Translations under genes and position numbers: made by a program
Notes under the pieces: model-generated
Database searches by the model: none
What the model saw: only the letters and a program-made list of their open reading frames with translations
What the model was told of the DNA's origin: nothing
Part shown: positions 1 through 34,370 of the stretch, one piece after another
Layout: every line of letters begins with the position of its first letter
How positions within the stretch are numbered: the stretch's first letter is position 1
Assembly (NCBI RefSeq): GCF_003334255.1
Contig: NZ_QOWU01000037.1
Reading direction: 5' to 3' (one strand)
DNA length: 51,502 nt
Source of the DNA: Escherichia coli
Lineage (GTDB): Bacteria > Pseudomonadota > Gammaproteobacteria > Enterobacterales > Enterobacteriaceae

Positions 1-208
1 ACGCGAGGCATCGTCTTAACGAGGCACCGAGGCGTCGCATTCTTCAGATGGTTCAACCCTTAAGTTAGCGCTTATGGGGATTTGCCCCCCCGGTAGAGTT
101 GCCCCTACTCCGGTTTTCGAGACCGGTCCAATCATCAAACGAAACATAAAATTAATTCACATTATGAGGAAAAGTATCTTTTTTGTACTTGTAAATTCAA
201 AGGCTTAG

Positions 209-1078
<870 letters not shown>

Positions 1079-1135
1079 GTCTTTAAGTGATAAGCATAAA
1101 CCGCAGCACGATCTTGCATACGACGTGCTACGGTT

Positions 1136-1690
1136 TCATTTATCTCCGACCGGAAACTTCTTATACAGTGTCGATATACCAACATCATAGATGATCGCCA
1201 CCTTCTGGCGAGGAACGCCTGATGCAATTAATCGCCCGGCCTGCGCCCATTGTTCTGGTGTAAGTTTGGGACGACGTCCACCAATTCGTCCCTGTGCGCG
1301 AGCAGCCTCCAGTCCAGCTTTTGTTCGTTCAACAATCAGTTCTCGTTCCATTTCAGCCAGGGCCCCCATCACATGAAAGAAAAAACGCCCCATCGGTGTG
1401 CTGGTATCAATAGCATCCGTCAGGCTGCGAAAATTAACGCCACGTTCGCGCAACTCCTCAACCAGAATGACCAGATGCCGCATACTACGCCCCAGCCGCT
1501 CCAGCTTCCAGACAACCAGAGTGTCACCTGCCGATAATGTCCTGAGCAGTTTTTTCAGTCCCGGCCTTTCGGACTTTGTACCGCTTATCTTGTCTTCAAA
1601 AATCAGCTCGCATCCTGCACAGTTCAGCGCATTACGTTGTAGATCTGTGTTCTGGTCATTTGTTGACACACGTACATAGCCAATAAGCAT
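1136..1690 (-). CDS. pin: DNA invertase, Pin/Gin/Hin-family serine recombinase
   Basis: MLIGYVRVSTNDQNTDLQ...GRIGGRRPKL matches Pin of e14 by recall; start taken at internal ATG 1690 rather than ORF-track 1726. Confidence 0.9.
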   Translation of the reverse strand: MLIGYVRVSTNDQNTDLQRNALNCAGCELIFEDKISGTKSERPGLKKLLRTLSAGDTLVVWKLERLGRSMRHLVILVEELRERGVNFRSLTDAIDTSTPMGRFFFHVMGALAEMERELIVERTKAGLEAARAQGRIGGRRPKLTPEQWAQAGRLIASGVPRQKVAIIYDVGISTLYKKFPVGDK

Positions 1691-1716
1691 GGTAGATCTC
1701 CCTGACAAAAGCAGGA

Positions 1717-2130
1717 ATGATGCCATTTGCTTGTTATTTCTGCATTTTCATAAACGTTGGTTTGGGAGAAGCGGCAAGACGAAATGTGGGAACAGGGGAA
1801 AATCAGATACCGGACATGGCTTCATTTAGTGGGGTGAGGGATTATTACGGAAAACAACTTTTGCCAGGAGGGTTGATACTTCAGTGGCTGACGATTCCAT
1901 CAAGTGCAGCAGCCAACGCTGTAACACTGAATAATGGTAATTATCAGCTGTCAGGCTATAAATGGCCCCAGTCATTTGGTGTCCTGTTTGCTGTGTTTGC
2001 TACAAAAGTTTCTGGCTCGACTAACGAAGCATATGCAATCTCAGTTAATCGTCACTCTACCGATGTAATTGTCACCTGGAATGCCCGTAAGGCTGATGAT
2101 GTCCACATTTTAGGAATTGGGAAATTATGA
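1717..2130 (+). CDS. Alternative tail-fibre C-terminal variable segment (silent orientation; no independent start)
   Basis: ORF begins inside the inverted repeat, shares LGLGEA junction with expressed fibre, followed by its own tfa. Confidence 0.5.
1752..1772. repeat. Left inversion crossover site (pix/gix-like inverted repeat)
   Basis: Inverted-repeat partner of 3460..3480, directly upstream of pin start. Confidence 0.55.
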
Positions 2131-2546
2131 AAATGAAATGGTCACCATCTGTTCAGGGATTTTTCTCTGAAAATAACAGCGATATTCCCGATGATGCTTT
2201 CGATATTGAAGATGCTCTTTATTATGAACTTATGAATGGTCAGAGTACGGGGAAAATTATTATCAATAACCCGGATAACTACCCTGTACTTACTGAATAT
2301 CCAGCGAAGACACAGGAACAGGAAATAGCTGAAGCGGAGGGAATGAAAAGTATACTTATTGAACAGGCCAACGAATACATGAACAGTAAGCAATGGCCTG
2401 GTAAAGCCGCTATTGGTCGTCTGAAAGGTGAGGAACTGGCGCAATATAATTTGTGGCTGGATTACCTGGACGCACTGGAACTGGTCGATACTTCCGGTGC
2501 GCCAGATATTGAATGGCCTACGCCTCCGGCAGTTCAGGCCAGATGA
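2127..2546 (+). CDS. Tail fibre assembly protein (Tfa, alternative orientation)
   Basis: 139 aa, Tfa-like; positioned after alternative fibre segment. Confidence 0.7.
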
Positions 2547-2781
2547 CGTCCGGCGCGGTGCTGGTATCTGATTCCATCACCGCGTCGATATTACCAACAT
2601 CATATTCAGTCATTTCCGGTTCCGGTGGTGCTATAAACTCTCCGTCAGAATAGAACCAACCGACGCCTGCATCTATATGATCAATATTTATAATTTCGCA
2701 GTTAGAGAATAAATCACCCTCTCCATCCCAGATAATAATATTTTTCACCACGCCATGTTCAATCAGAGCAAAATTACTCAT
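2518..2781 (-). CDS. Tail fibre assembly protein (Tfa, expressed orientation)
   Basis: 87 aa; C-terminal [12 protein letters not shown] motif parallels [12 protein letters not shown] of the convergent tfa. Confidence 0.6.
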   Translation of the reverse strand: MSNFALIEHGVVKNIIIWDGEGDLFSNCEIINIDHIDAGVGWFYSDGEFIAPPEPEMTEYDVGNIDAVMESDTSTAPDVIWPELPEA

Positions 2782-3764
2782 CAGGCATACTCCTCAACAA
2801 TAACTATTCCCGGGGCACCGTCACCTCCCGATTGAGCCTCACTTCCGGCAGGTGCGCAGGCTCCGCCTCCGCCAGCACCAAAGCCCTCAGCTTTACCACC
2901 ACCACGTCCGCTGAATGATGAAGAACTTGCACCACCTATACCGCCTGAACCTAGTGGTGTATCCCCCCCGGTACCACCTGCAACAGCTTTAACAGAGATA
3001 ACCATTGCTCCTGGTGTTTTTGCACTACAGCGAAATGCTCTTAGTACAGTACCGGACGATGTCGGACTGGCACCCCATGAAATACCCTGAATATATGATG
3101 TGTTTGCAGATGCTCCCCCCGCGCCACCGCCTGTACCACCCGGTGCAGTTATCAGGGAACCGAAATAAGTTGTGCCACCTTCACTACCTGAATTTCTTCC
3201 GGCTCCCCCCCCTTTACCTGCAGCACCGATAATAACGTTGACTTCGAAATCATTATCAACCTCGAAAAATGCTTCAATAAATGCACCGCTCAATCCAGCT
3301 CCGGCTGTTGCCTGCTGATTTTCTGTTGTTTCAGGAACCCCACCGCCGCCGCCACCGCCACCAGAGGCAATGACCCTTATCTTTTTTGTCCCTGGTGTTG
3401 GGATATATTTTCCAGAGCTTTTAAAAATATTCGTGTTTAACAAACGACCAGAGAATCTGGCTTCTCCCAAACCAAGGTTTTCGAGAGCCGTTTGCACAGT
3501 GCCATCCGATTTGATATCGCCAAACGGATTCTTGCGGCTTAACAGCAGCGCACGAAGTGCGGTAAGCATCTGGTCATGCCGCCCTTTCTCCAGGCTGGCA
3601 CCGGAGGCCTCCACCACGCTACAAAGTTCTTCCTGCAACATGTCAAAGTAGTCATCATCCAGATCGGTGGCAGGTGTGCCGGTCTGGGGGTTACCACGGG
3701 TAAAACCGTTCTTACCCGCGCCGAACTTATCCTTCTGCGCGGTTTTCGTGTCTATACGATGCAT
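2781..3764 (-). CDS. Tail fibre protein (constant N-term 3481..3764 + variable Gly-rich C-term)
   Basis: [18 protein letters not shown]-terminus typical of Mu/P2-type fibres; poly-Gly tracts; ATGA overlap with tfa. Confidence 0.8.
3460..3480. repeat. Right inversion crossover site (pix/gix-like inverted repeat)
   Basis: Lies inside tail-fibre CDS at the constant/variable junction (about aa 95). Confidence 0.55.
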
Positions 3765-3767
3765 GGA

Positions 3768-4352
3768 TTACTCCGGATATTTAAAAATTACGTAGGTATG
3801 CGAAGGGCAGAGTTTGTTAAGCACGCACTCGACAACGGTGTCGCCCCAGATACGCAGTGCGGAATCACAGGGATCGCCACATGTCATCCAGGTGGTGTTG
3901 GTGGCGGCTGGCATGTTGACCTGCCAGTAATACCGCCATTCCGGCGCATTCACTGCGTCAGTACAGGCCGATGAGCAGGTGAACGTGCTTTTATCGTATC
4001 GCGTGATAGTGGCGTCTGGTCTGCCCAGGGCAGCAAGCTGTGCAAGGTAAAAATCCTCATTGATGCCGCCCGCCAGATTAACCTTCGCATCCAGCCGTTG
4101 CTGACGCTGGCGAAGGGTCTGTGTCCCTGCGGGAATACATTCATCCGGCAGACCGCACAGACGCTCCCAGCGGTTTATCAGTTCAGTGGTGGTGCGCGGA
4201 TCCAGCTCCCGCATCAGGGCATCCGCACGCTGATGAACGCGGGTTAATGAAGGTGCCGCACCGGCAATCGCCGGATCGCTGGCTGACCATGCAGGACCGG
4301 GCGGCAACAGTGCCGATAACAGGCGGATGTAATCATCGTTTGTCACGTCCAT
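3768..4352 (-). CDS. Tail protein, YmfQ / Mu gp48-like
   Basis: 194 aa; position between baseplate J and tail fibre as in e14 ymfQ. Confidence 0.65.
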
Positions 4353-5401
4353 GAAATCGTCCCCAGAACCGCCAGTTCATTTTTTGCAATGGAGATATTG
4401 TCCGCCGGGGCAAGCAACTGATGGCTGTATTCCCCGTTCGCACCGGAAATCGCCTCACTGATACGCGATACCTTCAGTTCTCCCTGAGGATAACCATCAC
4501 GCAGCAGGAACGAACGCAACTCTGCGGTGATGGCAGCCCGTATTTCCGGTGTGTCCGGCGTCACGCGGATATGAAAATCCACTTTATGCGCCACCGGCCT
4601 GAATACATACAAATCAGAGCCTGCCACCGGGGCCAGTGGCTCAATGTGTTGTCTTGCCGCCGTTTCCGTTGATTCTTCCGGAATGGGATTAATCAGGTCA
4701 CTGCTGGCAATCATCACACCGACAGTTCCCGTTCCCATCCAGTGACGGTATGTCCATGCGCGGGTAATGCCGGGCACTTCTTTAGCCCAGACGACATAGT
4801 CCACGTCAGCCCCGCCCTGCGGCGTCCAGTAATACCGCTCAATGATGCGGGCGCGCCACGTTTCCAGATCTTCAGTATCAAATCCGCCTGTCAGGGTGTC
4901 AGCCACACCGGAAGACGGCAGACCATTCACCGGCGTGACCAGGATTAATGACGTACCGTCGTCAGCGTTACCGACCGCGCCTGAACTTGAGCAGGCGATC
5001 GGCACGCGCAGGACACCACCGGAGCTGGTTGCATCGGCAGTTGCCGTGTACTGAACCAGGTCATCGCGCTGAATAACACTCCCGGCGGTCACCTTCAGGC
5101 CATCGCTGACACCTTCCCAGCGCATATACCCGCTGGCAGCCGTGGCCCCCTTGCGCGGACACCGTTTCATCGCAGCATGTCGCGCCAGCCAGGACTCATC
5201 GCACAGGTCAGGCAGCATGTTCATTGCCAGATAATCGATGTAACCGTAAACCGTATGCAGCGCCGCCGCATACACCTTTGCCCGCACGTCTTCATCCATG
5301 CGCCGGAGCGTGTCGCTGACGTCCAGCCTGGCGAATAAATCGTTACGGAGCATACTGATATTTTCTGCCAGCGTCGGGCGCTGAAATTCACTGTCCGCCA
5401 T
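4343..5401 (-). CDS. Baseplate J-like protein (Mu gp47-like)
   Basis: 352 aa; gene order within Mu-like baseplate module. Confidence 0.7.
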
Positions 5402-5816
5402 GCGTTATCGCACTCCACAGATCATCAAAAGAAATCATTACCGGTCCGTCACGACGCCAGAGAGTGATACTGTTACCCAGTTCATTAATCCCGGTGCGGC
5501 GGATATCCAGATCAATACGGGACACCACGCCATCATCAATCATCCATTGCAGGCATTCGCGGATATACCCCCTTACCGTCTGCACCAGCTGATTGGTCAG
5601 TTTGCTGCGCTGAAGCAGCCACAGTCGGGAGCCGTAACGGTCATTCTGTACCGCAGGCCAGGTATCCCCCCACCATCCCATCGGGACGTCGGCGTTGTCA
5701 TCAGGCTCCGCCCGCCGCCAGGTAAACAGGGAAATCACCACGGAGCGGGTCAGCGGATCCAGCGGTGCGCTGGCGCAGGTGCGTTTACCGTTCACCGTCA
5801 GCCACAGTTCCATCAT
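5388..5816 (-). CDS. Baseplate wedge protein (GPW/gp25-like, Mu gp46-like)
   Basis: 142 aa; size and position. Confidence 0.6.
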   Translation of the reverse strand: MMELWLTVNGKRTCASAPLDPLTRSVVISLFTWRRAEPDDNADVPMGWWGDTWPAVQNDRYGSRLWLLQRSKLTNQLVQTVRGYIRECLQWMIDDGVVSRIDLDIRRTGINELGNSITLWRRDGPVMISFDDLWSAITHGGQ

Positions 5817-7440: not shown

Positions 7441-8813
7441 TGCACTGGCACCTTCAGAGGGATCACCGGCACAAAGCCGGGATGCGTAATGGCATTACGC
7501 CGGATAATGTCCGCGTCACGCGCCGCGTTATCAAACCAGGTCGCCGCCAGCACCAGCGCGGGTAAAACCTCATCCGGTGTGCGCTGAATGATCCGTGCAG
7601 ACTGTTCAAGGCGCGTGTTGATATCCGCATTCAGATCTGCTTTCACCCGGCGCAGCGCCAGAAACAGCGCATCACTGGTTGTACGGGACAACTCCTTATC
7701 AATTGCCGTATTCAGTGTGTCGCGAATGTCAGTCAGTTCTTCCCACGTCGGCAGGTCAACCGTGTTTTTCACCGCCGGTGCATTGTTCAGTGCCGGATGC
7801 GTGACGGAAGGCCAGCCAGTGCTCTGCGCAGGTGTTGTTGCCTGCCCCACTGCGGAATTCTGCATCACCGCGGAAGTTGTTGGCGCAGGCAATCGGGTGA
7901 CGGCATACGCCGCTTCACTGATTGCGGTCGTACGAAGGGTGCTGGCAACCACATTACGCTGCTGCGTAGCCGTGGCGGTGGTTTTACTGTCCGTTTTCCA
8001 GACGCCGCGCGGTTGCAGATCGCTGCCGAGGCTGACACCGGAAAGCGTTTTGATCATGGTGACCAGGTCGCTGGCGTTACCATAAAGGCGTTTCCCGGTA
8101 CGCCACATTTTCTGCACCTGCTCAACGAGATTTTTGCCTGACGATGGTGGCGGCAGAAGTACCGAGATATCCCCCTGCAACAGCCTGGCAGCATCCGATA
8201 CGGCAGAATCCACCACTTTCATCGCATCAGAAACATACCCAAGCATTGTGCTGACATTACCAACGACGTCGTTCTGCACGAAATCCGCCACGCCATCGAT
8301 ACTGAAACCTCTGAAGCTGTCACTGATGCAGTCATCCAGTGCAGAACAGGATGACATCAGCGTCTGCGCCGTCGCCGCACCTGAAGTGGGGTAAGAGAGT
8401 TCTCCCGCTTCGACAAACTTCAGGTCAAAGCGGACAATACGCCCTTCACTCTTCGATGTGCTGACCCGAACTTCTCCGTCAACACAGACTTTCAGCTCAC
8501 CGTATGTCGGATGGACAAGCGTGCCGGGACCGGGTTTATTCAGCGCGTCAATCAGGCGATCGCGCTGGTCAAAGCAGTCATCTCCCACCACATAAGCCGT
8601 GATGGACGGGCGAAAAGTGATTTTCCCCAGGTCTTCGGTATAGGGTTTGTCGCGGTTCGGGTATTCATGTGTTTCCACACGGCGACCGGTTCCCGCACTT
8701 TCTTCTTCAACCTTAAACGGCACGCCGCGAAATGACGCGTCCTGAAGTCTGTCACGCCAGCCTGAAGACGACGAAAGTAATGAAGGTCGGGTGGGAAATG
8801 AGGATAAATCCAT
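7437..8813 (-). CDS. DNA circulation protein (Mu gpN-like)
   Basis: 458 aa immediately downstream of tape measure. Confidence 0.6.
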   Translation of the reverse strand: MDLSSFPTRPSLLSSSSGWRDRLQDASFRGVPFKVEEESAGTGRRVETHEYPNRDKPYTEDLGKITFRPSITAYVVGDDCFDQRDRLIDALNKPGPGTLVHPTYGELKVCVDGEVRVSTSKSEGRIVRFDLKFVEAGELSYPTSGAATAQTLMSSCSALDDCISDSFRGFSIDGVADFVQNDVVGNVSTMLGYVSDAMKVVDSAVSDAARLLQGDISVLLPPPSSGKNLVEQVQKMWRTGKRLYGNASDLVTMIKTLSGVSLGSDLQPRGVWKTDSKTTATATQQRNVVASTLRTTAISEAAYAVTRLPAPTTSAVMQNSAVGQATTPAQSTGWPSVTHPALNNAPAVKNTVDLPTWEELTDIRDTLNTAIDKELSRTTSDALFLALRRVKADLNADINTRLEQSARIIQRTPDEVLPALVLAATWFDNAARDADIIRRNAITHPGFVPVIPLKVPVQ

Positions 8814-8837
8814 AGACTGACCTCAAAAAGGACTGCG

Positions 8838-10745
8838 TTATCGTGGAAAACGAAAAGGGGAATACCCCACATCGTGCGTGATTTTCATCAGGGGATCGGC
8901 TTTGCCCGGTACATCAATTATCTTCATACCTGGCGGAGCATTCTCGAACGTGACTTTCAGCTCGCTGTGCTGTGTCATGGAAGAAGATGGATTCAACAGC
9001 GGAACATTGGGTTTGTACTGACTCAGGCTGGCCTGATACTGCTCGTACTCTTTACGATCAAAAAAAGGCGTCCAGTCTGAAGCCAGAAACAGCCCTTTAT
9101 TATCCAGCCAGTTAACCGTATCTTCAGGAACAACACTTTCCAGAGTATCTTTAACCGGCTCATACATCAGGGTTCCCAGAAAACCATATACCCCGGCCTT
9201 CCCGATAAAGCCGCGGCCTTTCCCCATCAATCCCGTTTCTGCCGATACCTTCCCCAGCGTACGCATCTCTCTGGTCACTGCGGTAATGGATTTGGTAACG
9301 TCAGCAACCCATTTGGTTGCCATAAACAGGGCAATCGCTTTCAGAACAGTTTCCCATCCCCCCATCGCCTGCGCCGTTTCATCCACCACGTGCCAGACTT
9401 TTTTTATGACAGGACCTACGGTTTCCCAGTTATCAATAATGAGGTAAGCGCCACCAACCAGAAGAGCAATCAGCCCCTTAGCAGGCGTCATATTCATCAC
9501 ACCGCCGAGAACTTTCATAATTCTGGACAAAGAGCCTGCAGCGGCTCCCACCGTCAGTAAGGCCAGACCGATTTTAGCAATGGTCTTAACGAGCTCCGGG
9601 TTTTCACGGACAAACGTTCTCACTTCCTCAAGGAGCGGTTTTACCGCTTCAAGACCATCATTAACCTCAGGAAGAAACGTTTCCCCCAGCGTGGAAGAAA
9701 TGGCATCAAGTTGATTTTGCAGAAGTAAAAGCTGGTTTTCCGTCGTCGCTGCCCTCGAAGCATATTCCTTCTGCATCGAACTGCCATACTGCTGGGAATC
9801 CGCAACCCGCCTGAAGTTGGTACGCAACAAATCAAGGTTAGTCAGCAGAGGTGCTATCGCGCCCAGAGACTCTTTCCCGAACAGGGCATTCAGCACAGCT
9901 GCCTGTTTTTCTTTGGGCACTTTAGCCATCGCATCCAGTACAGACAGCATGGTTCCCCGGGCATCTTTCTGCATATCAGCAGCTAATTTCTTCGGATTGA
10001 TCCGCAGAAAACGTAATGCCTGTTTCTGCGATTTTGTCGCGGAATTTCCCGCGGTCAGGGAAAGCATGAAGTTCTTGATCCCTGTGGCGGCAATTTCTGA
10101 CTCCACGCCCATCCCGGCAATGGTTGCCCCCATTGCCGCGATTTCGCCGGAAGCCACACCTGCAACACCACCTAAAGGACCAATACGCGTAACAATATCG
10201 GAGATTTTCTTCGCATTCGCCGGGCCGGTATTACCAAGGTAGTTGATTTTGTCAGCCAGCCCGGCCACTTCATCCTGCGTCATATTAAACGCAGTACGCC
10301 ACTGGGCCATCATCTGCCCGGACTCTTCAGCCGTGGTATCAAAGGCCACGCCCATCTTCACCGCATCAGTGGCAAACTGCATCAGTTCATCACGTGCAAT
10401 CCCGGCCTGACCGCCAGCCGCCACAATTTCCGCGATCCCGTCTGCAGACATGGGAAGCTCAGTAGACAAAGCGCGTACCTGCTCCGTCATGGCCTTAAAC
10501 GCATCCGGCGTATCCAGACCGTCTACCACTTTGCGGACATCAGCCATCTTCGATTCAAGGGTGATGGCTGATTTTACAGGGAGTGCCAGTGCCCCCATTA
10601 TTGCAGTACCCGCCCCGGCAGCGCCCAGAGCAAGGCTGGAGACTTCTTTCTGAAACCCCTTAAGCTGACGCTGCATACCTTTAAGCGGGCCGGACAGCCT
10701 GTCAACGGCGGTGATGATGGCTTTCAGCTGAAAATTATCAGCCAT
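8838..10745 (-). CDS. Tail tape measure protein
   Basis: 635 aa, Ala/Gly-rich helical protein with hydrophobic central segment; RBS gaggag upstream. Confidence 0.8.
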   Translation of the reverse strand: MADNFQLKAIITAVDRLSGPLKGMQRQLKGFQKEVSSLALGAAGAGTAIMGALALPVKSAITLESKMADVRKVVDGLDTPDAFKAMTEQVRALSTELPMSADGIAEIVAAGGQAGIARDELMQFATDAVKMGVAFDTTAEESGQMMAQWRTAFNMTQDEVAGLADKINYLGNTGPANAKKISDIVTRIGPLGGVAGVASGEIAAMGATIAGMGVESEIAATGIKNFMLSLTAGNSATKSQKQALRFLRINPKKLAADMQKDARGTMLSVLDAMAKVPKEKQAAVLNALFGKESLGAIAPLLTNLDLLRTNFRRVADSQQYGSSMQKEYASRAATTENQLLLLQNQLDAISSTLGETFLPEVNDGLEAVKPLLEEVRTFVRENPELVKTIAKIGLALLTVGAAAGSLSRIMKVLGGVMNMTPAKGLIALLVGGAYLIIDNWETVGPVIKKVWHVVDETAQAMGGWETVLKAIALFMATKWVADVTKSITAVTREMRTLGKVSAETGLMGKGRGFIGKAGVYGFLGTLMYEPVKDTLESVVPEDTVNWLDNKGLFLASDWTPFFDRKEYEQYQASLSQYKPNVPLLNPSSSMTQHSELKVTFENAPPGMKIIDVPGKADPLMKITHDVGYSPFRFPR

Positions 10746-10829
10746 GCTTCATCTCCTCATTTATACGGACGGCCTCTGCCTCCAGATCAGCAAAGTGGGA
10801 AATAGCCGTCCGGCGAAGTTCAAGGGGGT

Positions 10830-11153
10830 TTAATTTCCAGAACCACGCGACATTGTAGAATCGCTTCCGGAGGTCTCTTCCGTCTCCAAGCCGGTAAAAA
10901 AACGCATTACAATCATGCCTGCCTTGAAAATATCCAGCTTCGTCATCTGCGCTGCAGACGAGCGCGGGATCCCGGCCAGAAGCGGGATATATTTCAGCGC
11001 TACCTGACTGTCCATTTTCATACCACCATCAGGTGAAACAGAGAAAGGGAACCCCAGCGCCTCAATCTCGTCATACGTAGGCTCACGTATTTCCAGCACA
11101 TGCAGTGTTTCTTTGTGGGCGATGATCGGTTTTTTAAGTACAAGCTCAATCAC
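10830..11153 (-). CDS. Tail assembly chaperone
   Basis: 107 aa between tail tube and tape measure. Confidence 0.5.
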   Translation of the reverse strand: MIELVLKKPIIAHKETLHVLEIREPTYDEIEALGFPFSVSPDGGMKMDSQVALKYIPLLAGIPRSSAAQMTKLDIFKAGMIVMRFFTGLETEETSGSDSTMSRGSGN

Positions 11154-22019: not shown

Positions 22020-22481
22020 CTATCTGCACTGCTCATTAATATACTTCTGGGTTCCTTCCAGTTGTTTTTGCATAGTGATCAGCCTCTCTCTGAGGGTGAA
22101 ATAATCCTGTTCAGCGGTGTCTGCCAGTCGGGGGGAGGCTGCATTATCCACGCCGGAGGCGGTGGTGGCTTCACGCACTGACTGACAGACTGCTTTGATG
22201 TGCAACCGACGACGACCAGCGGCAACATCATCACGCAGAGCATCATTTTCAGCTTTCGCATCAGCTAACTCCTTCGTGTATTTTGCATCGAGCGCAGCAA
22301 CATCACGCTGACGCATCTGCATGTCAGTAATTGCCGCGTTCGCCAGCTTCAGTTCTTTGGCATTTTTGTCGCGCTGGGCTTTATAGGTAATGGCGTTATC
22401 ACGGTAATGATTAACAGCCCATGACAGGCAGACGATGATGCAGATAACCAGAGCGGAGATAATCGCGGTTACTCTGTTCAT
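22020..22481 (-). CDS. Rz: Spanin inner-membrane subunit Rz
   Basis: [30 protein letters not shown]... near-identical to lambda Rz. Confidence 0.9.
22079..22261 (-). CDS. Rz1: Spanin outer-membrane lipoprotein Rz1 (embedded in Rz, +1 frame)
   Basis: [23 protein letters not shown]...PPPPP; lipobox VVGC. Confidence 0.85.
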
Positions 22482-22975
22482 TGCTGACCCCACAAACAGA
22501 TTTCACGCTCAATCTCACGACGAGTCATGAGACCTTTCCATTGCTTACCGCCAGCATATGTCCAGCGACGTAACTGATCACATGCGCCTTTGATATCGCC
22601 CTGGTTTATTTTGCGAAGAAGCGTCGATGTTCTGAAATTGCCAGCACCCACGTTGTAAACGAATGAGTAAAGAGCGCCGCGCGTTGTTTCCGGTATATCG
22701 ACTTCGATGTATGGGTTAATTTGTCTGGCGACAGTGGCAAGGTCTTTATTCAAGAGTGCTTTGCATTCTGCTTTGGTATACGTTTTACCGAGCATGATGT
22801 CTTTTCCTGTATGCCCGTGACATACGGTCCATACACCAACAATATCTTTGTATGGTATGTAGCTGACACCTTCCAGACCATCGTTACCACTTGGGCCAGT
22901 GATTAACACTGATGCTATAGCAATTGCTCCGCCACCAATAGCAGCAGCAACGGCTTTTCGTAATGATGGAGGCAT
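22478..22975 (-). CDS. SAR endolysin (phage 21 R-type lysozyme)
   Basis: N-terminal SAR helix [18 protein letters not shown] followed by lysozyme domain. Confidence 0.9.
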
Positions 22976-23190
22976 TATTCACCTCTCGCAGCCTTGCGCT
23001 TATCTTCTTTAATCTTGAAATAAAGGTTTGTCAGGTACGTCAGCAGGCCAAATACCAGGCTACCCAGCACACCTATTGCTGCCCACTGTGAGGGCGTGAC
23101 TTTATCGAGCAGCTGTAAAAACCAGTAACCGGCACTACCTGCTGAGGTGCCATAGGCGACACCCGTTGTTAACTTATCCATGGATTTCAT
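22975..23190 (-). CDS. Pinholin (phage 21 S-type holin)
   Basis: [26 protein letters not shown]...; start at ATG 23190 with gaggtg SD. Confidence 0.85.
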
Positions 23191-23778
23191 AACCCCACCT
23201 CGCAGACAAAGCGGGTGTAAATTGAGGGAATACAACGTATCGCAAAAAAGCAGAAACGTAACAGACTCGGAGTCAGTGAATAACTCAGGTATTGAGTTAT
23301 CAGCTAATATCGAGACTCAAAAAATGGAAAAACCAGCTCGACGGCGGGTTTAAGCTGTGTGACGAAGTAACCACTCTTAACAGCATAACCAATTTTTTAC
23401 GTACGTAAACCACTGAATGATATTTATGAGAATGCTACCGAGTGTTCAAAACACCACCACAAATACATAAGAAAACCTCAACAAATAACCAATAAATAAT
23501 TTCCGGCGTTATTTTTAGTTAATTTAAATTAAACCATCGAATTATAGACCCCCCATAAATAACAGCCATTAATATAAATTAGCTAATAGGTTTATTTTTG
23601 TTCAAATAAGAGCCATAAATAGGTTTCGATAGAAAAAGTTCAGATAAAAATAGAGATCTACTTCACAAATTAAATGAGAAACTAAAACTTACATCTTGAA
23701 ATAATCACATTGATTAGATGAATATTTATCGCGCAGTGACATCATTTTTTAATAATAGTTCAAAAAAAAGGGCTCACG

Positions 23779-24861
23779 ATGAAAAAATTAACAGTGGCAA
23801 TTTCTGCTGTAGCTGCATCAGTACTGATGGCGATGTCTGCTCAGGCAGCTGAAATTTATAATAAAGACAGTAACAAGCTGGATCTGTACGGGAAAGTTAA
23901 TGCTAAGCACTACTTCTCCTCTAATGATGCAGATGATGGTGATACTACTTATGCCCGTCTTGGCTTCAAAGGTGAAACCCAAATCAACGATCAACTGACT
24001 GGTTTCGGTCAGTGGGAATATGAATTCAAAGGCAACCGCGCTGAATCTCAAGGTTCCTCCAAAGATAAAACCCGTCTTGCCTTCGCTGGCCTGAAATTCG
24101 GTGACTACGGCTCCATCGATTACGGCCGTAACTACGGTGTAGCATACGACATCGGTGCGTGGACTGACGTCCTGCCAGAATTCGGTGGTGACACTTGGAC
24201 TCAAACAGATGTGTTCATGACTGGTCGCACCACTGGTGTTGCAACTTATCGTAACAACGACTTCTTTGGTCTGGTTGATGGTCTGAACTTTGCTGCTCAG
24301 TATCAGGGTAAAAATGACCGCACTGACGTAACTGAAGCTAATGGTGATGGTTTCGGTTTCTCCACTACTTATGAGTATGAAGGATTCGGTGTAGGTGCAA
24401 CCTATGCTAAATCTGATCGCACTAATAATCAGGTTATCTACGGTAACAACGGTCTGAATGCTTCTGGTCAAAATGCTGAAGTATGGGCAGCTGGTCTGAA
24501 ATATGATGCGAACAACATCTATCTGGCCACCACCTATTCTGAAACCCAGAACATGACTGTTTTTGGTAATAACCATATTGCCAACAAAGCACAAAACTTC
24601 GAAGCTGTTGCACAATATCAGTTCGACTTCGGCCTGCGTCCATCCGTTGCTTACCTGCATTCTAAAGGAAAAGACTTGGGTGTTTGGGGTGATCAGGACC
24701 TGGTTGAATATGTTGATGTAGGTGCAACCTATTACTTCAACAAAAATATGTCCACTTTTGTTGACTACAAAATCAACCTGATTGATAAGAGCGATTTCAC
24801 GAAAGCATCTGGCGTTGCTACCGATGATATCGTTGCTGTAGGTATGGTTTACCAGTTCTAA
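23779..24861 (+). CDS. Outer-membrane porin, prophage-encoded (NmpC/Lc/OmpC family)
   Basis: 360 aa; signal peptide ...AMSAQA; AEIYNKD...; C-terminal YQF; paralog of phoE in the window. Confidence 0.9.
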
Positions 24862-24997
24862 TTTGATTACTAAAAGATATGTTGTGGGAGGCTTTGCCTC
24901 CCCAACATATAAGTGGCTCCCTCAAGCCACTTCCTTTAGAAGCACAACCTTGCTTCTAACTATACAAACCTTCTGTTATATATTACCCTTTATTTTT

Positions 24998-25022
24998 GGG
25001 GGCGTTTCAACGCCCCATTTTT
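24998..25022 (+). terminator. Intrinsic terminator downstream of porin gene
   Basis: gggggcgtttcaacgcccc hairpin followed by attttt; preceded by three further hairpins (24879..24958). Confidence 0.5.
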
Positions 25023-25049
25023 AATAACTTTTAGTAAATAATTGGCGTA

Positions 25050-25433
25050 TTAATTAGAGTTATTAACAACGATATCCATCTCTAACCGGATATCTAATGC
25101 CATTAACATCCCTTCAATTATGCCCTCAGCCTTCTGTAACCTTTTCCCGATATAACCATCAGAGCAGCAATGCTTACCTGCCAGTGACATGAATGTCATA
25201 CCGACTACATAATAATCTACTAATAAATCGTGCAAATCGCTGTTGTTCTTTTTCAGACGGGCCATGCACCCGCAAATGATCATCGCGTCATCGTCACAAC
25301 ATTGCGGGCGAGATTTTACTTTTGAAGTAATTAATCCCTTAAAACCGGCGGCAATGGACGACCAGGTCACATCTTCATGATTATTAGCCGCCCACGCTCC
25401 CCAACGCTCAAGAACCATCTGAATATCACGCAT
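25050..25433 (-). CDS. Late-gene antiterminator Q (QuuD/phage 21-82 type)
   Basis: [21 protein letters not shown]...; start at ATG 25433. Confidence 0.85.
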
Positions 25434-25655
25434 CAACTTACTCCACAAAAATCAGACCAGAACGCCAATTACAAGCAAAAATCAACAAAACAGTATTAGT
25501 TGATTGTTATCTCTGACTTCATACTCCTGCTCCTGTCAGGGTTTTGGCGTAATTCTTCAGTATTCGGTAATCGGTCAAAACAGAACCGGGGAAACGATAT
25601 AAGCGCAGACGCCCCCAGCGGTGGCGAAGAAGTTCTGCCATATTAAACTCAAACA

Positions 25656-26018
25656 TCATTCATTCCCCATTTCGGTGATGGTCAGTTCCAGCCTCCCACC
25701 TTTGGTAACAGGCATCTTCACAACACGGTAATCAACGACCTGAGCATCATCCAGCCAGAAACCTGCTTTGGTGAGTGCGTCAAAAGCGGCTTTTTGCAGA
25801 TTATCCAGGTCACGGCGACGGCGATCCGGCATGTGGCACTCAATACGGATTTTCACTGGCATAGCCAGGCCGATATCCAGCATGGAGCCTTTGATGATTC
25901 GGGCGACGTTATCGCGGTATGCCTGCCCTTCTGCGCTGACGTGCGTGCGCCCGCGATTATGGCGGTAATAGCGATTATTGCTCGGAGGCCAGGGTAATGT
26001 GATGCTGTAGGTATTCAC
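25656..26018 (-). CDS. rusA: Holliday-junction resolvase RusA
   Basis: 120 aa [27 protein letters not shown]... matches RusA. Confidence 0.9.
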
Positions 26019-26305
26019 GCCTTAATTACCCCCTCTTTCAGCCAGATAACCTGCGTTCTCGCCATACCTTCCAGCGCGCATTCTTTTGCATATCCAGCGT
26101 CAACAAAATGCGTGCGGCGGTCGATTTCGTCGTGGCAGGCAGAACATGCAATGGTGGCAATCAGGTCTGGCGGTTTCGTACCGGTGCCGCACAATCCAGT
26201 CAGCCGGATATGTGCCAGTACAGACGTTTCAGGGTTGCCATTACATACGCCAGGGATTCTTACCTGGCATTCCCGACCACGCGCTGCTTTTCTCAAATCA
26301 GCCAT
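26015..26305 (-). CDS. DUF1364/YbcO-like nin-region protein
   Basis: Cys-rich [14 protein letters not shown]...CSACHDEID; start at ATG 26305. Confidence 0.65.
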
Positions 26306-26468
26306 GATTCCTCCTTGCTGCCAGTCGCAACCATTTTTTATCAACCAGGCTAGCGGTATATCCGAGCAGTGTTGGTATTTCGGATGGTTTCAGCTCAGGC
26401 TTACGCTTACGACGATTTGGTACTCTGTAGATGTGTCCGTTCATGACACGAATAAGCGGTGTAGCCAT
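26298..26468 (-). CDS. NinE-like small basic protein (56 aa)
   Basis: Below ORF-track cutoff; [24 protein letters not shown]...[11 protein letters not shown]; TAATG coupling with upstream gene. Confidence 0.45.
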   Translation of the reverse strand: MATPLIRVMNGHIYRVPNRRKRKPELKPSEIPTLLGYTASLVDKKWLRLAARRNHG

Positions 26469-26923
26469 TACGCCTCCTGCTTGTCGCGCAGCAGCTGGAA
26501 CTCGCAGCTCTGCGGAATAGTCAGGTGGCAGCCAATATTCATCGCCCAGGCTTCAACCTTACACAGGAAGACATACATCTCTCCGCTATCAAGATTGGAG
26601 GTATGACGTAATGACTGAATGGTGGTGATTTCACCGGTTACGACATCAACCAGTTCTTTGGTTTCATAACCGAGATAAGTGTGTTTGAGAGCATCTTTTA
26701 CCCAAGCTGGAGTGGCGAACGTTTTACCCCTGCTGATGAGGTATTCACTGATTTCGCTGTACCACATGTGGCTGAGTGCATTCTGGGAAAGACTGCGTCT
26801 CTCGCGCCACGGTTTAAGCACCATGCGAAAGCATTTGCCGTCCTCCAGATAAGGCTGGATCTGCTGGCCGATAGCGGTGAAGTTACCGCGATGCAATTTG
26901 ATACCATCTTGTGGGAGGTTCAC
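26468..26923 (-). CDS. YbcN-like nin-region protein (DUF1367-like)
   Basis: 151 aa; ggaggtga SD; DLP12 ybcN-like by recall. Confidence 0.65.
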
Positions 26924-27110
26924 GCTTCACCTCCGCAGAGATCAAACGCTGGATGCAAAATATCGCAGGTGCATTTCTGCATCTGTGAATGGAGAAGAGA
27001 GGTTGGATTGTATGTGCGCATAAACGTCCCCGTTTAGCGCAGAAGTCACCGGAGTTGTTCAGGCTCCGATGACATGATTATGGCGGGTTGATTATGGAAA
27101 ATCAATCAAG

Positions 27111-27620
27111 CTATGTTTCATCGGCGAGGTCATCATCTGTGACAATCATGAGGTTAAAGAATGAAATAATGTTTAACCACTGCGAGTAAATATCGCTCGT
27201 CATGCTGGTTAGCTCCTCTCCGTGAAAGAAGGCATCAGGCCCAACCTCATAGTTGAGCTCTTCAAAAAGCTCCATGTTTAATTGGCTAATAAAGAATTGC
27301 TTCAGACCTTTCATTGCATCCTGATTGTTGGTATCTGAGTAATTTATTATGCTCCCCATTGCCATGTTCAAACATCGAACAATATTGGCTGCGTCATGAA
27401 AGCTCCAGTCAGCCCCTTTCTTTCCTTTTGAGTATGAATTCGCTCTCTCAGCGCAAGCTTTTAATGTCTCGTACAAATACTGCTTTCCTTGCAACTGCAA
27501 AGCTTTTTCGGATGTGGCCCTGCTAGCTTCTGAGGATCGCCATGCTAAATAAGTTGCTACCGCAGATGCGATAGCTGCAATCGCAGAAACTGCATCTATA
27601 CCGTTATCCCAACCAGACAT
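27111..27620 (-). CDS. Hypothetical single-pass membrane protein (169 aa), low GC
   Basis: N-terminal hydrophobic helix AVSAIAAIASAVATYLAW, no recognised domain; AT-richer than flanks by eye. Confidence 0.55.
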   Translation of the reverse strand: MSGWDNGIDAVSAIAAIASAVATYLAWRSSEASRATSEKALQLQGKQYLYETLKACAERANSYSKGKKGADWSFHDAANIVRCLNMAMGSIINYSDTNNQDAMKGLKQFFISQLNMELFEELNYEVGPDAFFHGEELTSMTSDIYSQWLNIISFFNLMIVTDDDLADET

Positions 27621-27646
27621 AAAAACCCCCTCGATTATTTGAGGGG
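27621..27646 (-). terminator. Intrinsic terminator-like hairpin immediately upstream of the 169-aa gene start
   Basis: Minus-strand cccctcaaataatcgaggggg followed by ttttt, abutting the ATG. Confidence 0.4.
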
Positions 27647-27669
27647 ATTATACCTTCAAAGTTTCCGCG

Positions 27670-27891
27670 CTACCCATTCATAACTAAAGCTTTTGCTTTC
27701 CAATGAGAAAGCGCGCTATGTTCGCTAGAACCTGTTTCGACTATATGGCGCCCCCAGGAATCTCCCCATGCTCTCCACGTTGACTTGCCGGTTTGGACTA
27801 CTGTGACAACATACTCTTTGCCGTCGATGTTAACTTCATGCTGCACTGGTGATTGTGATTTCATTTTCAAACCTCTGCTTATCGTTGACAT
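27670..27891 (-). CDS. Hypothetical small protein (73 aa)
   Basis: ORF; Trp-rich motif WRAWGDSWGRH; no recognised family. Confidence 0.45.
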   Translation of the reverse strand: MSTISRGLKMKSQSPVQHEVNIDGKEYVVTVVQTGKSTWRAWGDSWGRHIVETGSSEHSALSHWKAKALVMNG

Positions 27892-27915
27892 CGCAATTAT
27901 GCTGTCACGACATAA

Positions 27916-28722
27916 TCACTTCGCCTCCTGCTGCGGTGCTGCTGCGATCATGGCCTTCCATTGGTGGTCTGGGCTCCATAATCTACCGCCATCTTCACAC
28001 TCTTCCTGCGCCTGATGGTACGCCTCACGCATTTCTGGAGTTGGCTCCTTAGGAACCAGCACCCAACCATCCGGAATCACCGGAGAGTTGCTGACGGGCG
28101 ACTCGGAAATTTTTGGCGAAGAATCTAGGGCTGGCGCGGTCTGCATGGTGGTGGGCGACTCGGCTTTTTCGGCACCCTGAAGCATGGCGTCGCGGCATCC
28201 GTCATACGCTTCTTTCATAGCATCACGCACCCATCCGACAGGTTTCTGCTCAGTCAACTCACACCATTTCTCGAATGTGGGCACAGATACCGGAACTGGC
28301 GGTGCTGCATAAAGCGCCTGACAACTCCAGCCAGACCAGTGAGCACCCTCCGCTCTCTCATCATCTTCAGGGCGAACAAGCGTGACTTCGCTCGGGTGTT
28401 TCCTGTGTGACCACAGCCAGGCTACGGTTTCGGCATTGGCTGGCTCTGGCGGGGCGGAGTAAAAATACTCATCCTCAATCCCATCAACGGGCTTTGAGAA
28501 GCCGATAAAATCACCATAATGCCAAGGATAGGGGCCGTATGGCTCAGAGGTCACACGACGCCACCGGTGAATGGCAGGCTCCGCTTCGAGCGATGCCAGC
28601 GCGATACGCAGTGCCGCCAGCGTGTTGCTGTCGCCTTCGTCCAGACCGAACGGGATTTCATCTCTGGCTGCTTCCATGTCGGCAATTTTCTGCTGCAGCC
28701 ATTGTTTGGTAATAGTGCTCAT
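27916..28722 (-). CDS. Hypothetical prophage protein (possibly DUF550/DUF551-type)
   Basis: 268 aa, Pro/Trp-rich; ATGA overlap with downstream ead-like gene. Confidence 0.55.
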   Translation of the reverse strand: MSTITKQWLQQKIADMEAARDEIPFGLDEGDSNTLAALRIALASLEAEPAIHRWRRVTSEPYGPYPWHYGDFIGFSKPVDGIEDEYFYSAPPEPANAETVAWLWSHRKHPSEVTLVRPEDDERAEGAHWSGWSCQALYAAPPVPVSVPTFEKWCELTEQKPVGWVRDAMKEAYDGCRDAMLQGAEKAESPTTMQTAPALDSSPKISESPVSNSPVIPDGWVLVPKEPTPEMREAYHQAQEECEDGGRLWSPDHQWKAMIAAAPQQEAK

Positions 28723-29132
28723 GATGCCTCTCCTTTACCGGATGCGGCGGCGATCAGCTTCTGCGCCTGCTGAATGTCAGGATTGCCTGCAATCATCACT
28801 TCTGGCGCGTCACAGTCACCGCCAAGGTCAAGAATGCGCTCATGTCCGGTACGCAGGCAGGATTTGTATCCTGAAACCGTCTGCTTGAGCGATTCGGTCA
28901 GCACAGCAATCCTCTGGTCTTTGGCTTCCAGCTCATCCAGCAGCGCCAGCACTGTGGCTGGGTTGGCTACGGAGTTCAGCGCGTTCAAGGCAGTGATATC
29001 TGCATCAAGCTGAGTTCCTTCTGCCAGTGAGATATCGAAAATGTCATCAGGCGGCATAACACTAAGGCGCTCATGTGCACCAACTGCTGCCTCAGCGATT
29101 TCACGTAATGCGCGTTTGTCGATGTTGCTCAT
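28719..29132 (-). CDS. ead/Ea22-like protein
   Basis: 137 aa starting MSNIDK; coiled-coil-like. Confidence 0.55.
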   Translation of the reverse strand: MSNIDKRALREIAEAAVGAHERLSVMPPDDIFDISLAEGTQLDADITALNALNSVANPATVLALLDELEAKDQRIAVLTESLKQTVSGYKSCLRTGHERILDLGGDCDAPEVMIAGNPDIQQAQKLIAAASGKGEAS

Positions 29133-29147
29133 TCTTCATCCTCCAAC

Positions 29148-29360
29148 TCAGATACGGCGTCCATTACATCTGAGCCGCGAATGGTTTCGAATGCCACACA
29201 AGACCATTTCAAAGCACAGGCGCTCATGCGGGTGCGGAGATTGCCAATACTTGAAGCCAGGACGATGCGAATAGCCCTGCATCGCATAAAACTCTCCGGC
29301 CAATTCAATGGCGGCATCCACCAGTTCACGGTTTGTCATTGGTTTGTCGATGTTGCTCAT
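29148..29360 (-). CDS. Hypothetical protein with ead-like N-terminus (paralogous start)
   Basis: Starts MSNIDK; 19-nt identical 5' end with the neighbouring gene (29114..29132 vs 29342..29360). Confidence 0.45.
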   Translation of the reverse strand: MSNIDKPMTNRELVDAAIELAGEFYAMQGYSHRPGFKYWQSPHPHERLCFEMVLCGIRNHSRLRCNGRRI

Positions 29361-29557
29361 TGGGCGGCCTCCTGGATTAACTTTTCGAGAATGGCATCAA
29401 GGGCTTTCCGTTTTCCGATATACCCGCCACCAACCCACTCTCCACGAAGCAAGGCGTAATATTTCCCGTCGTCTTCGTGATACGGTCCTCGGATAGACCA
29501 GTCGGTTGTGATGGCGTCGATAGCCTTTTTAGTTTCTGCGAAATCCATCATGCTCAT
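29357..29557 (-). CDS. Hypothetical protein
   Basis: ORF 29357..29614; start placed at MSMMDFAE (29557), directly after ren stop. Confidence 0.45.
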   Translation of the reverse strand: MSMMDFAETKKAIDAITTDWSIRGPYHEDDGKYYALLRGEWVGGGYIGKRKALDAILEKLIQEAAQ

Positions 29558-29847
29558 ACCCCTACCCTCCCCCAAACCATCAACACCCGCTTCATCGCGG
29601 CACTCTGGCGACACTCCTTAAAAATCAGGTTAGTGCTCACCTTTCCTTCCCGTTCTTCCCTGGTAGCGAATCTGTAATACACCGTTCGCCAGACCTTACC
29701 ATCTATGACCAAGATTCCTGCCCGCGCCATTTTAGCCGCAGCCTGATTTATGCTGGTTACTGTTGCGCCTGTTACCGCGGCAACGTCCAGCGCACAGAAG
29801 CTCTTATGCGTCCCCAGGTAATAAATAATTGCCTCTTTACCCGTCAT
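29554..29847 (-). CDS. ren: Ren protein (lambda Ren-like)
   Basis: MTGKEAIIYYLGTHKSFCALDVAAVTGATVTSINQAAAKMARAG... near-identical to lambda Ren. Confidence 0.85.
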   Translation of the reverse strand: MTGKEAIIYYLGTHKSFCALDVAAVTGATVTSINQAAAKMARAGILVIDGKVWRTVYYRFATREEREGKVSTNLIFKECRQSAAMKRVLMVWGRVGV

Positions 29848-31471: not shown

Positions 31472-31557
31472 AATTCCTCCCGCAATGAGTGTGTTACGAT
31501 TTGCACCTGAAAGTCGGTTCTGTTCCAGCAGACCGGCTTTCGCCATTTCTGAACCTG

Positions 31558-32097: not shown

Positions 32098-32166
32098 AAT
32101 TGACTCCTTTAGTTTGAATTGACTGTTAAGTTGATTGCTTATTGTTAAAGAGCGTGAAATGGAAAT

Positions 32167-33191: not shown

Positions 33192-33312
33192 TACCAATTA
33201 AAAATTATCAACTGGGCATTGTGCTCATTCAGTAAAGAACTAATTCCTATCTTTGCTCTAGGTAGTAATATTAAGCCACCGCAATAATATCTTTACCTAA
33301 CGGCGTAAGAAT

Positions 33313-34365: not shown

Positions 34366-34370
34366 AACGG

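Follow-up and report, generated by a model that had tools for sequence, protein, structure and literature searches.

A probable e14/Mu-type tail-fibre inversion switch in an SfV/SfIV-like prophage of Escherichia coli

The locus described here carries a serine invertase gene, pin, beside two convergent tail-fibre cassettes enclosed by inverted repeats. It raises the question of whether this arrangement is a phase-variation switch, and which fibres such a switch would produce. In the 51.5-kb stretch of DNA analysed (the window) we find, as the original prediction held, all the structural elements of a Gin/Pin-type fibre switch: an invertase, two sites, a constant N-terminus and two alternative C-termini. 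We read the locus, with a probability of about 0.85, as a tail-fibre phase-variation switch of the e14/Mu type, carried by an SfV/SfIV-like prophage that is integrated beside thrW and is apparently complete.

The prophage is SfV/SfIV-like, with int adjoining tRNA-Thr (thrW), and its structural module is 97-98% identical to those of phages SfIV, SfII and vB_EcoM-720R4. The late operon follows the gene order of Mu gp44-gp49, the Mu-like baseplate genes, and ymfQ (3768..4352) precedes the constant fibre N-terminus in it. A PD-T4-3 defence gene adjoins pin. No second copy of the thrW 3' end, as a prophage end near the pin side, was found within positions 1-1300. Judged by its sequence, the prophage appears to be complete.

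Crossover sites, cassettes and chaperone genes

The features of the locus, in window coordinates, are as follows.

1136..1690, minus strand: pin, a 184-aa serine DNA invertase with Ser9 present and a rare D64E change (WKLERLGRS)
1606..1669, minus strand: candidate enhancer, two Fis-core-like 15-mers inside the pin 5' coding region
1606-1620, minus strand: candidate enhancer 15-mer at pin +71..+85, GTGCAGGATGCGAGC, Fis-core-like, G-N13-C
1655-1669, minus strand: candidate enhancer 15-mer at pin +22..+36, GTGTCAACAAATGAC, Fis-core-like, G-N13-C
1745..1770, plus strand: pin-proximal pix site, TTTTCATAAACG TT GGTTTGGGAGAA, core 1757-1758, identical to the K-12 e14 pin-side site; one arm of the inverted repeat
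1759..2130, plus strand: silent alternative fibre C-terminus, about 122 aa, weak match to Pfam Gp53-like_C (E 0.007), phrog_2557 (E 9e-35)
2127..2546, plus strand: canonical tail-fibre assembly chaperone (Tfa), 139 aa, Pfam Caudo_TAP (3e-23), phrog_188 (2e-51)
2391..2589, both strands: conserved central block, the 3' ends of both chaperone genes including their 29-nt overlap
2518..2781, minus strand: 87-aa 'mini-Tfa', whose gene overlaps that of the expressed fibre at TGATG (translational coupling), with only the last ~20 residues Tfa-like
2781..3764, minus strand: expressed fibre ORF, 327 aa
2781..3473, minus strand: expressed variable fibre C-terminus, a glycine-rich domain, Pfam Gly_rich_2 (3e-07, aa 121-324), phrog_6202 tail fiber (7e-60)
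3462..3487, minus strand: fibre-proximal pix site, CTCTCGAAAACC TT GGTTTGGGAGAA on the minus strand, core 3474-3475, identical to the K-12 e14 Sc-side site
3474..3764, minus strand: Sc, the constant N-terminal part of the fibre (aa 1-97), not within the invertible DNA, matching the tail-fibre N-terminus families phrog_1396 and phrog_2617

The repeats had been predicted to bracket a segment of about 1.7 kb, and a repeat search agrees. The two 21-nt arms (1752-1772 and 3460-3480) are complementary at 20 of 21 positions with 1687 nt between them, and the pattern is confined to these two places in the whole window (0 expected, from 100 shuffles). Two 26-bp crossover sites in inverted orientation, 1745-1770 and 3462-3487, bracket the 1.72-kb segment. 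Both are imperfectly palindromic with the same 2-bp core, TT (AA on the other strand), and the invertible segment measures 1,717 bp from core to core. Alignment to gix and pix, suggested as a check, gave 26 of 26 matches to a pix site of the K-12 e14 P segment at each site; the gix sequence differs. In K-12, PinE and PinQ both invert the P segment, which lies between TTGGTTTGGGAGAAGG repeats, and the segment is locked in pinE mutants (PMC12529663).

The expressed fibre was predicted to cross the right repeat at about aa 95, and the repeat does span aa 95-102 of the 327-aa ORF, with the fibre-proximal core inside codon Leu97. The single G/C mismatch between the arms lies outside the crossover point and remains with the pin flank. 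Because of this mismatch the claim that both frames encode LGLGEA fails: the motif is found in the minus frame only (aa 97-102) and the plus frame reads VGLGEA.

In each of the two convergent cassettes of the segment, a chaperone gene follows a fibre tip. The plus-strand frame reads through the left repeat and on into the 139-aa Tfa gene, whose start overlaps the end of the silent C-terminus at an ATGA that couples the two. The silent ORF does hold a different C-terminus and its own tfa (2127..2546), as described originally, although its ATG at 1717 is incidental and meaningful coding begins at the crossover core. In a simulated inversion the silent C-terminus is expressed only once flipped, within a 220-aa fibre. 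The silent cassette is without a promoter or start of its own. The promoter/terminator scan found no promoter-like excess over shuffles inside the segment, and the consensus scan found no terminator between the two cassettes.

The two chaperone genes are not equivalent. PF02413 covers the 139-aa Tfa over model positions 17-130 of 131 (E 3e-23). In the 87-aa protein the same family (Caudo_TAP) matches at E 0.026 and over residues 68-86 only, against the final 19 positions of the model; residues 1-56 match phrog_14370 (unknown function) and residues 65-86 match phrog_3792. The protein has full-length relatives at 44% in Klebsiella phage Kp4865-2 and at 32% in phage Goslar, where the annotation is tail fiber assembly. 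On these profile matches the 87-aa protein is neither a full Caudo_TAP family member nor a canonical tfa product. Its position, coupling, C-terminal motif and the Goslar annotation suggest that it probably has a chaperone-like role. Of the predicted pair of convergent, overlapping tfa genes, the 29-nt overlap is exact (2518-2546) but the minus-strand gene is not a canonical tfa. The overlap is a conserved feature, and the K-12 genes tfaP and tfaE likewise overlap by 29 nt. In the central block (199 nt) each strand encodes ...DTSxAPDxxWPxxP, and within the segment this block alone recurs in the K-12 e14 P segment (85%) and in the locus L007 (88%).

For the glycine-rich C-terminus, tblastn found no matching phage record, an outcome probably due to low-complexity filtering, and the domain was typed by PHROG and Pfam profiles instead. 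NCBIfam gave no match for the four cassette proteins. Chimeric fibre genes of this kind are mislabelled as pseudogene or hypothetical protein by automated annotation.

Pin and the orientation of the segment

The pin gene lies just outside the invertible segment. Its product is a small serine recombinase with an N-terminal catalytic domain (YVRVST, Ser9) and a C-terminal HTH (Pfam Resolvase 7e-51, HTH_7 1e-12). Residues 1-181 align with the Gin structures 3uj3 (E about 4e-93) and 4m6f, and identity is 94.6% to K-12 PinE and 72.5% to Mu Gin. The presence of an intact small serine invertase next to the segment supports the proposed control by Pin. A 196-aa ORF from 1726 was rejected as the real Pin; it lacks a Shine-Dalgarno sequence and overruns the Gin N-terminus, and the homologues begin MLIGY. 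The promoter scan found no consensus sigma-70 match for pin (invertase promoters are weak), and Rfam gave only a sub-threshold CssrB match at the pin 3' end.

The pin 5' region had been named as the place to look for a recombinational enhancer, and two conserved Fis-core-like 15-mers stand there as candidate sites. Their positions are conserved in K-12 pinE and Mu gin in the alignment. The centre of the proximal 15-mer is ~96 bp from the left crossover core, and the two motifs are 49 bp apart from centre to centre, counted by hand. The Fis sites of hin are 48 bp apart from centre to centre. The choice of the pin 15-mers as candidate Fis sites is based partly on the hin sequence. In Hin about 100 bp separate hixL from the proximal Fis site, and a TAATG tract lies between the sites (PMC3798978).

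By analogy with Gin, Hin and PinE, Pin dimers would bind the two 26-bp pix sites, and the bound sites would synapse at a Fis-bound enhancer within the pin 5' coding region. Pin would then cut the 2-bp TT/AA cores and exchange strands, leaving 1,717 bp inverted. The late baseplate operon would continue from the 97 constant codons of the fibre N-terminus into the cassette that happens to face them. The window state would give the 327-aa fibre with a glycine-rich tip and the 87-aa mini-chaperone; the flipped state would give a 220-aa fibre with a gp53-like tip and the 139-aa Tfa. Fis dependence of the inversion would follow from the same analogy. We infer that the D64E Pin of the window is active and that the two tips recognise different receptors, in other words that the switch acts on host range.

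The evidence on orientation comes from comparison among isolates. The original prediction was to fall if only one orientation was ever observed and pin proved inactive, or if the repeats were not recombinogenic; both orientations occur in public genomes, among isolates. Near-identical prophages of strains G1/2, G6/7 and G8 have the flipped state between identical flanks. Compared with G6/7, the flanks of the window are 100% and 99.9% identical and the segment is inverted at 99.5%. In these comparisons with other genomes the breakpoints of the flip fall exactly at the repeats. Junction searches of complete genomes found the window-state junction in 3 and the flipped junction in 12. The window state is present, at 100% identity over 5,690 bp, in LR882050 and in the locus L009. 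The 220-aa fibre predicted for the flipped state occurs verbatim in at least 59 index blocks and is annotated in strain G1/2, and the exact 327-aa fibre occurs in 51 index blocks. The same cargo with a D64 Pin is found in both orientations (L018-L020 against L013-L015).

Alternative readings and meaning

The alternative that fares best, though we hold it unlikely, is that D64E cripples Pin. The architecture would be intact but the allele hypomorphic or locked, the lineage would be effectively fixed as glycine-rich-ON, and a paralogous PinQ, PinR or P2-type invertase would act in trans. Every active-site residue of Pin is conserved save Asp64, here Glu. Of the 120 best cluster representatives among the homologues, 118 can be aligned at this position, and all 118 have Asp there. 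The residue corresponds to Asp67 of Tn3/gamma-delta resolvase; in that enzyme the D67A and D67N mutants show no resolution in vivo, and their cleavage is ~60-fold slower (PMC2794168). Neither of these mutants is a D-to-E change, Glu retains the carboxylate, and the same authors hold that D67 is not essential for chemistry (PMC2794168). A literature search for Hin or Gin mutants at the Asp64/65 position returned nothing relevant. Action in trans has a precedent in PinQ, which inverts the e14 P segment (PMC12529663).

The E64 allele is a real circulating variant, present in 17 contigs. All three E64 loci with the cargo of the window (the window, L009, which equals L021, and L011) are glycine-rich-ON, as a locked allele would predict, but this is a tiny sample that may be clonal. 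Against a locked switch, the loci L007 and L008 have identical E64 Pin and 100% identical flanks around a 1,852-bp segment in opposite orientations, with only 2 mismatches, consistent with swapped outer G/C positions. Inversion has therefore occurred in an E64 background.

A second alternative, which we consider improbable, places the main benefit to the lysogen in anti-phage defence and not in virion host range. The chimeric fibre of one orientation would block phage adsorption, as StfE2 of the K-12 e14 P segment is reported to do for incoming phages; inversion of that segment by PinQ and PinE protects against T2 (PMC12529663). The sites, Sc and Pin frame are the same as in e14, and PD-T4-3 is a neighbour of pin. 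However, StfE2 runs from the silent ORF on the pin side to the C-terminus of StfP, and the C-termini of the window are unrelated to those of K-12. Unlike cryptic e14, the prophage also looks complete and is close to isolated viable phages, so virion host range is the simpler reading.

That the repeats are chance or relic, and the cassettes merely convergent neighbours without recombination, is ruled out by the 0 matches expected, by the segment flipped between identical flanks elsewhere with breakpoints at the repeats, and by the identity of the crossover sites to proven pix sites (PMC12529663).

Gin/Pin/Cin fibre switches are textbook, so the phase-variation reading teaches little about mechanism. 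What it offers is an e14-type frame that carries interchangeable, uncharacterised, putative receptor-binding cassettes, which circulate in P2-like prophages too and bear on the prediction and engineering of phage host range. It also flags a natural variant of the Pin active site, whose activity is measurable. Two more speculative readings, which we regard as doubtful, take D64E Pin as a natural hypomorph and the constant frame as a universal cassette socket. The hypomorph would turn a fast phase switch into a near-heritable glycine-rich-ON state, reset only by paralogous invertases in trans. The socket would consist of the two pix sites and the central block with its antisense overlap of chaperone 3' ends. 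Through it, myophage lineages unrelated to one another (SfV-like, e14, P2-like) would exchange half and whole cassettes, and the glycine-rich tip with the 87-aa mini-chaperone would be an uncharacterised class of receptor-binding module.

Relationship to known inversion systems

The closest relative is the e14 P segment with PinE. The two are alike in their 26-bp sites (identical), in Pin (94.6%), in ymfQ upstream, and in the 29-nt chaperone overlap with its conserved central block. Sc of the window matches the first 101 residues of K-12 StfP at 100 of 101 positions. They differ in that neither the variable C-termini of the window's fibres nor its chaperones, in their N-terminal parts, are related to StfP-C/TfaP and StfE-C/TfaE; the variable C-termini have no blastp similarity to those of K-12 e14. 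One chaperone in the window is an 87-aa mini-protein, and its Pin has D64E. Furthermore, e14 is an icd-integrated cryptic remnant with mcrA next to pin, whereas the window holds a thrW prophage with PD-T4-3 in the place of mcrA.

The Mu G segment with Gin (S-U / S'-U') has the same layout, in which baseplate genes lead into Sc and then two convergent tip and chaperone cassettes. Like pin in the window, gin lies outside the segment in the same reading direction with the enhancer in the invertase 5' end (a candidate enhancer in the window). Mu differs in its gix sequence (TTATCCAAAACC TC GGTTTACAGGAA), in the 3-kb length of the G segment, in U and U' without overlap, and in an Sc of ~170 aa against 97 aa in the window.

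Compared by description, the C segment of phage P1 with Cin and the Min multiple-inversion region of plasmid p15B rely on the same enzyme family and likewise serve to alternate tail-fibre C-termini. Min is described as having six sites with many cassettes, in contrast to the two sites in the whole window. Shuffling of cassettes among phages was reportedly established by Sandmeier, Iida and Arber. Hin, which drives flagellar phase variation in Salmonella, is an invertase of the same subclass; its hix sites are 26 bp long with a core of 2 bp, and the invertase gene contains a Fis enhancer that lies ~100 bp away from the proximal site. The Hin system differs in flipping a promoter and not coding cassettes, and in having hin inside its invertible segment.

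Finally, a P2-like prophage (L003, NZ_CP138217) carries the same 1.7-kb cassette pair at 99.7% identity with the same crossover-site bounds. It departs from the window in its outer half-sites, in an invertase of only 82% identity, and in having a 350-aa P2 H-type N-terminus as the constant part.

Organization of the invertible segment

The 21-bp inverted repeats that the original prediction placed around the segment are present, with arms at 1752-1772 and 3460-3480 that are complementary at 20 of 21 positions and lie 1687 nt apart. Their motif is unique to these two places in the 51.5-kb window (0 expected from 100 dinucleotide-preserving shuffles). Taken as recombination sites, the repeats belong to two 26-bp elements. 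These have the same sequence as the pair of Pin crossover sites (pix) bounding the P segment of e14, a cryptic prophage of K-12; that segment is flanked by TTGGTTTGGGAGAAGG repeats, has been inverted in experiments by PinE and by PinQ, and is locked in a pinE mutant (PMC12529663). The two sites share the same inner half-site and the same 2-bp core. The lone G/C mismatch falls at the final position of the outer half-sites and so remains with the flanks upon inversion.

Features of the switch (window coordinates)
1136..1690, minus: pin, 184 aa
1606-1620: candidate enhancer 15-mer 2 (pin +71..+85), GTGCAGGATGCGAGC
1655-1669: candidate enhancer 15-mer 1 (pin +22..+36), GTGTCAACAAATGAC
1745-1770, plus: left (pin-proximal) 26-bp site, TTTTCATAAACG TT GGTTTGGGAGAA
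2127..2546, plus: canonical Tfa, 139 aa (Caudo_TAP 3e-23), coupled through an ATGA overlap with a ~122-aa tip
2518..2781, minus: 87-aa ORF, start overlapping the fibre stop codon (TGATG)
2781..3764, minus: expressed fibre, 327 aa
3462-3487, minus: right (fibre-proximal) 26-bp site, CTCTCGAAAACC TT GGTTTGGGAGAA

The fibre, convergent genes and pin described earlier agree with the ORFs found, and the genes at 2127..2546 (+) and 2518..2781 (-) do overlap by 29 nt. Pin contains Resolvase and HTH_7 domains. Its alignment to the crystallised Gin invertase runs from end to end (E 3.7e-93), and it shares 94.6% identity with K-12 PinE and 72.5% with Mu Gin. The first ~100 residues of the fibre match tail-fibre N-termini and are one residue off K-12 StfP, and residues 121-324 are a glycine-rich domain (PF21722). 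LGLGEA had been read in both frames across the repeat; it is found in the fibre at aa 97-102, but the left frame encodes VGLGEA. Entered at the left core, the plus-strand frame yields the ~122-aa tip, which has weak gp53-like similarity and a strong phrog_2557 match. The Tfa-family match of the 87-aa ORF is limited to its last ~20 residues (Caudo_TAP E 0.026; phrog_3792). Klebsiella phage Kp4865-2 has a full-length relative next to an invertase, and another, in phage Goslar, carries the annotation tail fibre assembly.

A recombinational enhancer had been suggested for the 5' region of pin, and a search there identified two G-N13-C 15-mers, whose position is kept in K-12 pinE and Mu gin. They may be exact homologues of the hin sites. 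The centre of the proximal 15-mer is ~96 bp from the left core, and TAATG lies between the two. Both this distance and this tract fit the Hin enhancer, which is ~100 bp from hixL and has ATTTA and TAATG tracts between its Fis sites (PMC3798978). On sequence grounds the pair is a plausible, putative enhancer.

Both orientations among isolates

A simulated crossover at the cores produces a 220-aa fibre ending in ...GIGKL. The exact 220-aa CDS is annotated in strain G1/2, which has the same prophage with the glycine-rich tip silent and adjoining pin. When the window is compared with G6/7, the flanks are 100% and 99.9% identical and 1752-3480 aligns in reverse at 99.5%. Queries of 300 nt spanning the junctions (at least 80% coverage) found the window state in 3 and the flipped state in 12 of 5,426 complete genomes. 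Exact copies of the 327-aa and the 220-aa fibre are indexed in 51 and 59 blocks of public assemblies, respectively, and window 1-5690 is a 100% match to a GCA_965136505.1 contig. The comparison is across isolates, not within one culture; at this level, an invertible segment with alternative fibre C-termini is borne out by both orientations within (near-)identical flanks. The original observation is thus confirmed and its interpretation supported, with small corrections.

The classical fibre-switch model is best supported. Pin together with Fis would invert the segment, and late transcription of the baseplate operon would run from the 97 constant codons into the tip that faces them, the coupled downstream gene providing a chaperone matching that tip. 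The cassette facing away has neither promoter nor start of its own; a promoter scan of the window segment gave no excess over shuffles. By analogy with Mu, P1 and e14, switching the tip would change host range. For the K-12 P segment a defence role has recently been reported, in which StfE2 blocks T2 adsorption (PMC12529663). A similar additional function is possible but less likely here, because neither tip is related to the K-12 tips and this prophage appears complete.

Automated annotation serves chimeric invertible fibre genes badly. In NZ_LR882050.1, the closest complete genome (matching window 2781-4352), PGAP reduces the glycine-rich fibre to a partial 'stfP' pseudogene and marks ymfQ as frameshifted, whereas both genes are intact in the window. 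The 87-aa gene is labelled a truncated pseudogene in G1/2.

A glutamate at position 64 of Pin

In the window Pin, WKLERLGRS replaces the WKLDRLGRS shared by K-12 PinE, Gin, the P2-like invertase and the Pin of G1/2. A single-base change in codon 64 (GAG, 1499-1501) accounts for D64E; the active-site Asp is otherwise invariant, being present in 118/118 alignable proteins from the best 120 homologue cluster representatives. Since 17 public contigs encode the identical protein, E64 Pin is a circulating allele and not a one-off or sequencing error. Residue 64 corresponds to Asp67 of Tn3/gamma-delta resolvase, where D67A and D67N abolish resolution in vivo and slow cleavage ~60-fold; the authors regard the side chain as non-essential for the chemistry, and the substitutions there were A and N, not Glu (PMC2794168).

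An attenuated or locked allele is an unlikely reading, to which we give perhaps one chance in five. All E64 loci with the window cargo, that is, its two cassettes (the window, L009=L021 and L011), are glycine-rich-ON, as this reading would have it, and D64 loci occur in both orientations. Against it, two loci with identical E64 Pin and different cargo (L007 and L008) have 100% identical flanks around an oppositely oriented 1,852-bp segment. Only two bases differ between these segments, and we read them as the outer G/C positions having changed places. Inversion has therefore occurred in an E64 background, either by E64 Pin itself or by a paralogue in trans, as PinQ acts on the K-12 P segment (PMC12529663); since a paralogue could account for it, the attenuated allele is retained as a rival.

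Prophage setting and relation to e14 and P2-like prophages

The window comes from the E. coli chromosome. The fibre is preceded on its own strand by ymfQ (Mu gp48-like), baseplate J, gp46, gp45 and gp44, which lie upstream in the order of Mu. The structural module is 97-98% identical to SfIV, SfII, SfV and vB_EcoM-720R4, and the integrase adjoins tRNA-Thr. A search of 1-1300 turned up no copy of the thrW 3' end, which leaves the pin-side prophage end undefined inside the window. By eye ~75-130 is tRNA-fragment-like, with an anticodon-arm-like CCGGTTTTCGAGACCGG; ARAGORN called no tRNA gene there. A 257-aa LEM-3-like GIY-YIG protein (305-1078, +) matches the PADLOC defence model PD-T4-3 over its full length (E 2e-140). 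It fills the slot beyond pin held by mcrA/HNH in K-12 e14 and at locus L012, which suggests a position for defence-gene 'morons' next to the invertase. Where pin ends (3' end; 1102-1158, -), Rfam gives a sub-threshold match to CssrB (Shigella sRNA B), which scores 32 bits where the gathering score is 76 and is probably not meaningful. Window 8753-11116 and 21169-37084 do not align to the otherwise near-identical NZ_LR882050.1 prophage; the tape-measure and early/regulatory regions are mosaic replacements.

Around the switch, the window and K-12 have only three DNA blocks in common.

Blocks shared with K-12 (window coordinates)
3461-5130: 96.5%, fibre constant part and baseplate genes
1135-1771: 92%, pin and left site
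2391-2589: 85%, central block, 3' ends of both chaperone genes

The variable tips have no similarity to StfP-C or StfE-C. K-12 tfaP and tfaE also overlap by 29 nt, so the overlap, which encodes ...DTSxAPDxxWPxxP on both strands, is a conserved trait of this segment family and not peculiar to this locus. The central block is kept at 85-88% in segments with otherwise unrelated cargo (K-12 e14, L007), and several database matches stop at it (at window 2542 or 2589). This pattern suggests that half-cassettes may be swapped by homologous recombination there. The same 1.7-kb cassette pair is found at 99.7% in a P2-like prophage (L003, NZ_CP138217, 2998-4721). Its fusion partner there is a 473-aa H-type fibre, and the adjacent invertase is only 82% identical. 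The homology ends at the crossover sites, indicating exchange of whole cassettes between phage lineages.

The switch adds one more example to a thoroughly known kind. It is mildly notable only for its rare Pin active-site variant, its mini-chaperone paired with a glycine-rich tip, and the evidence for movement of the same cassette between SfV-like, e14 and P2-like prophages. The e14/Pin frame is kept here, with identical sites and a near-identical invertase and constant fibre part, but with different tip cassettes and in an SfV-like prophage.
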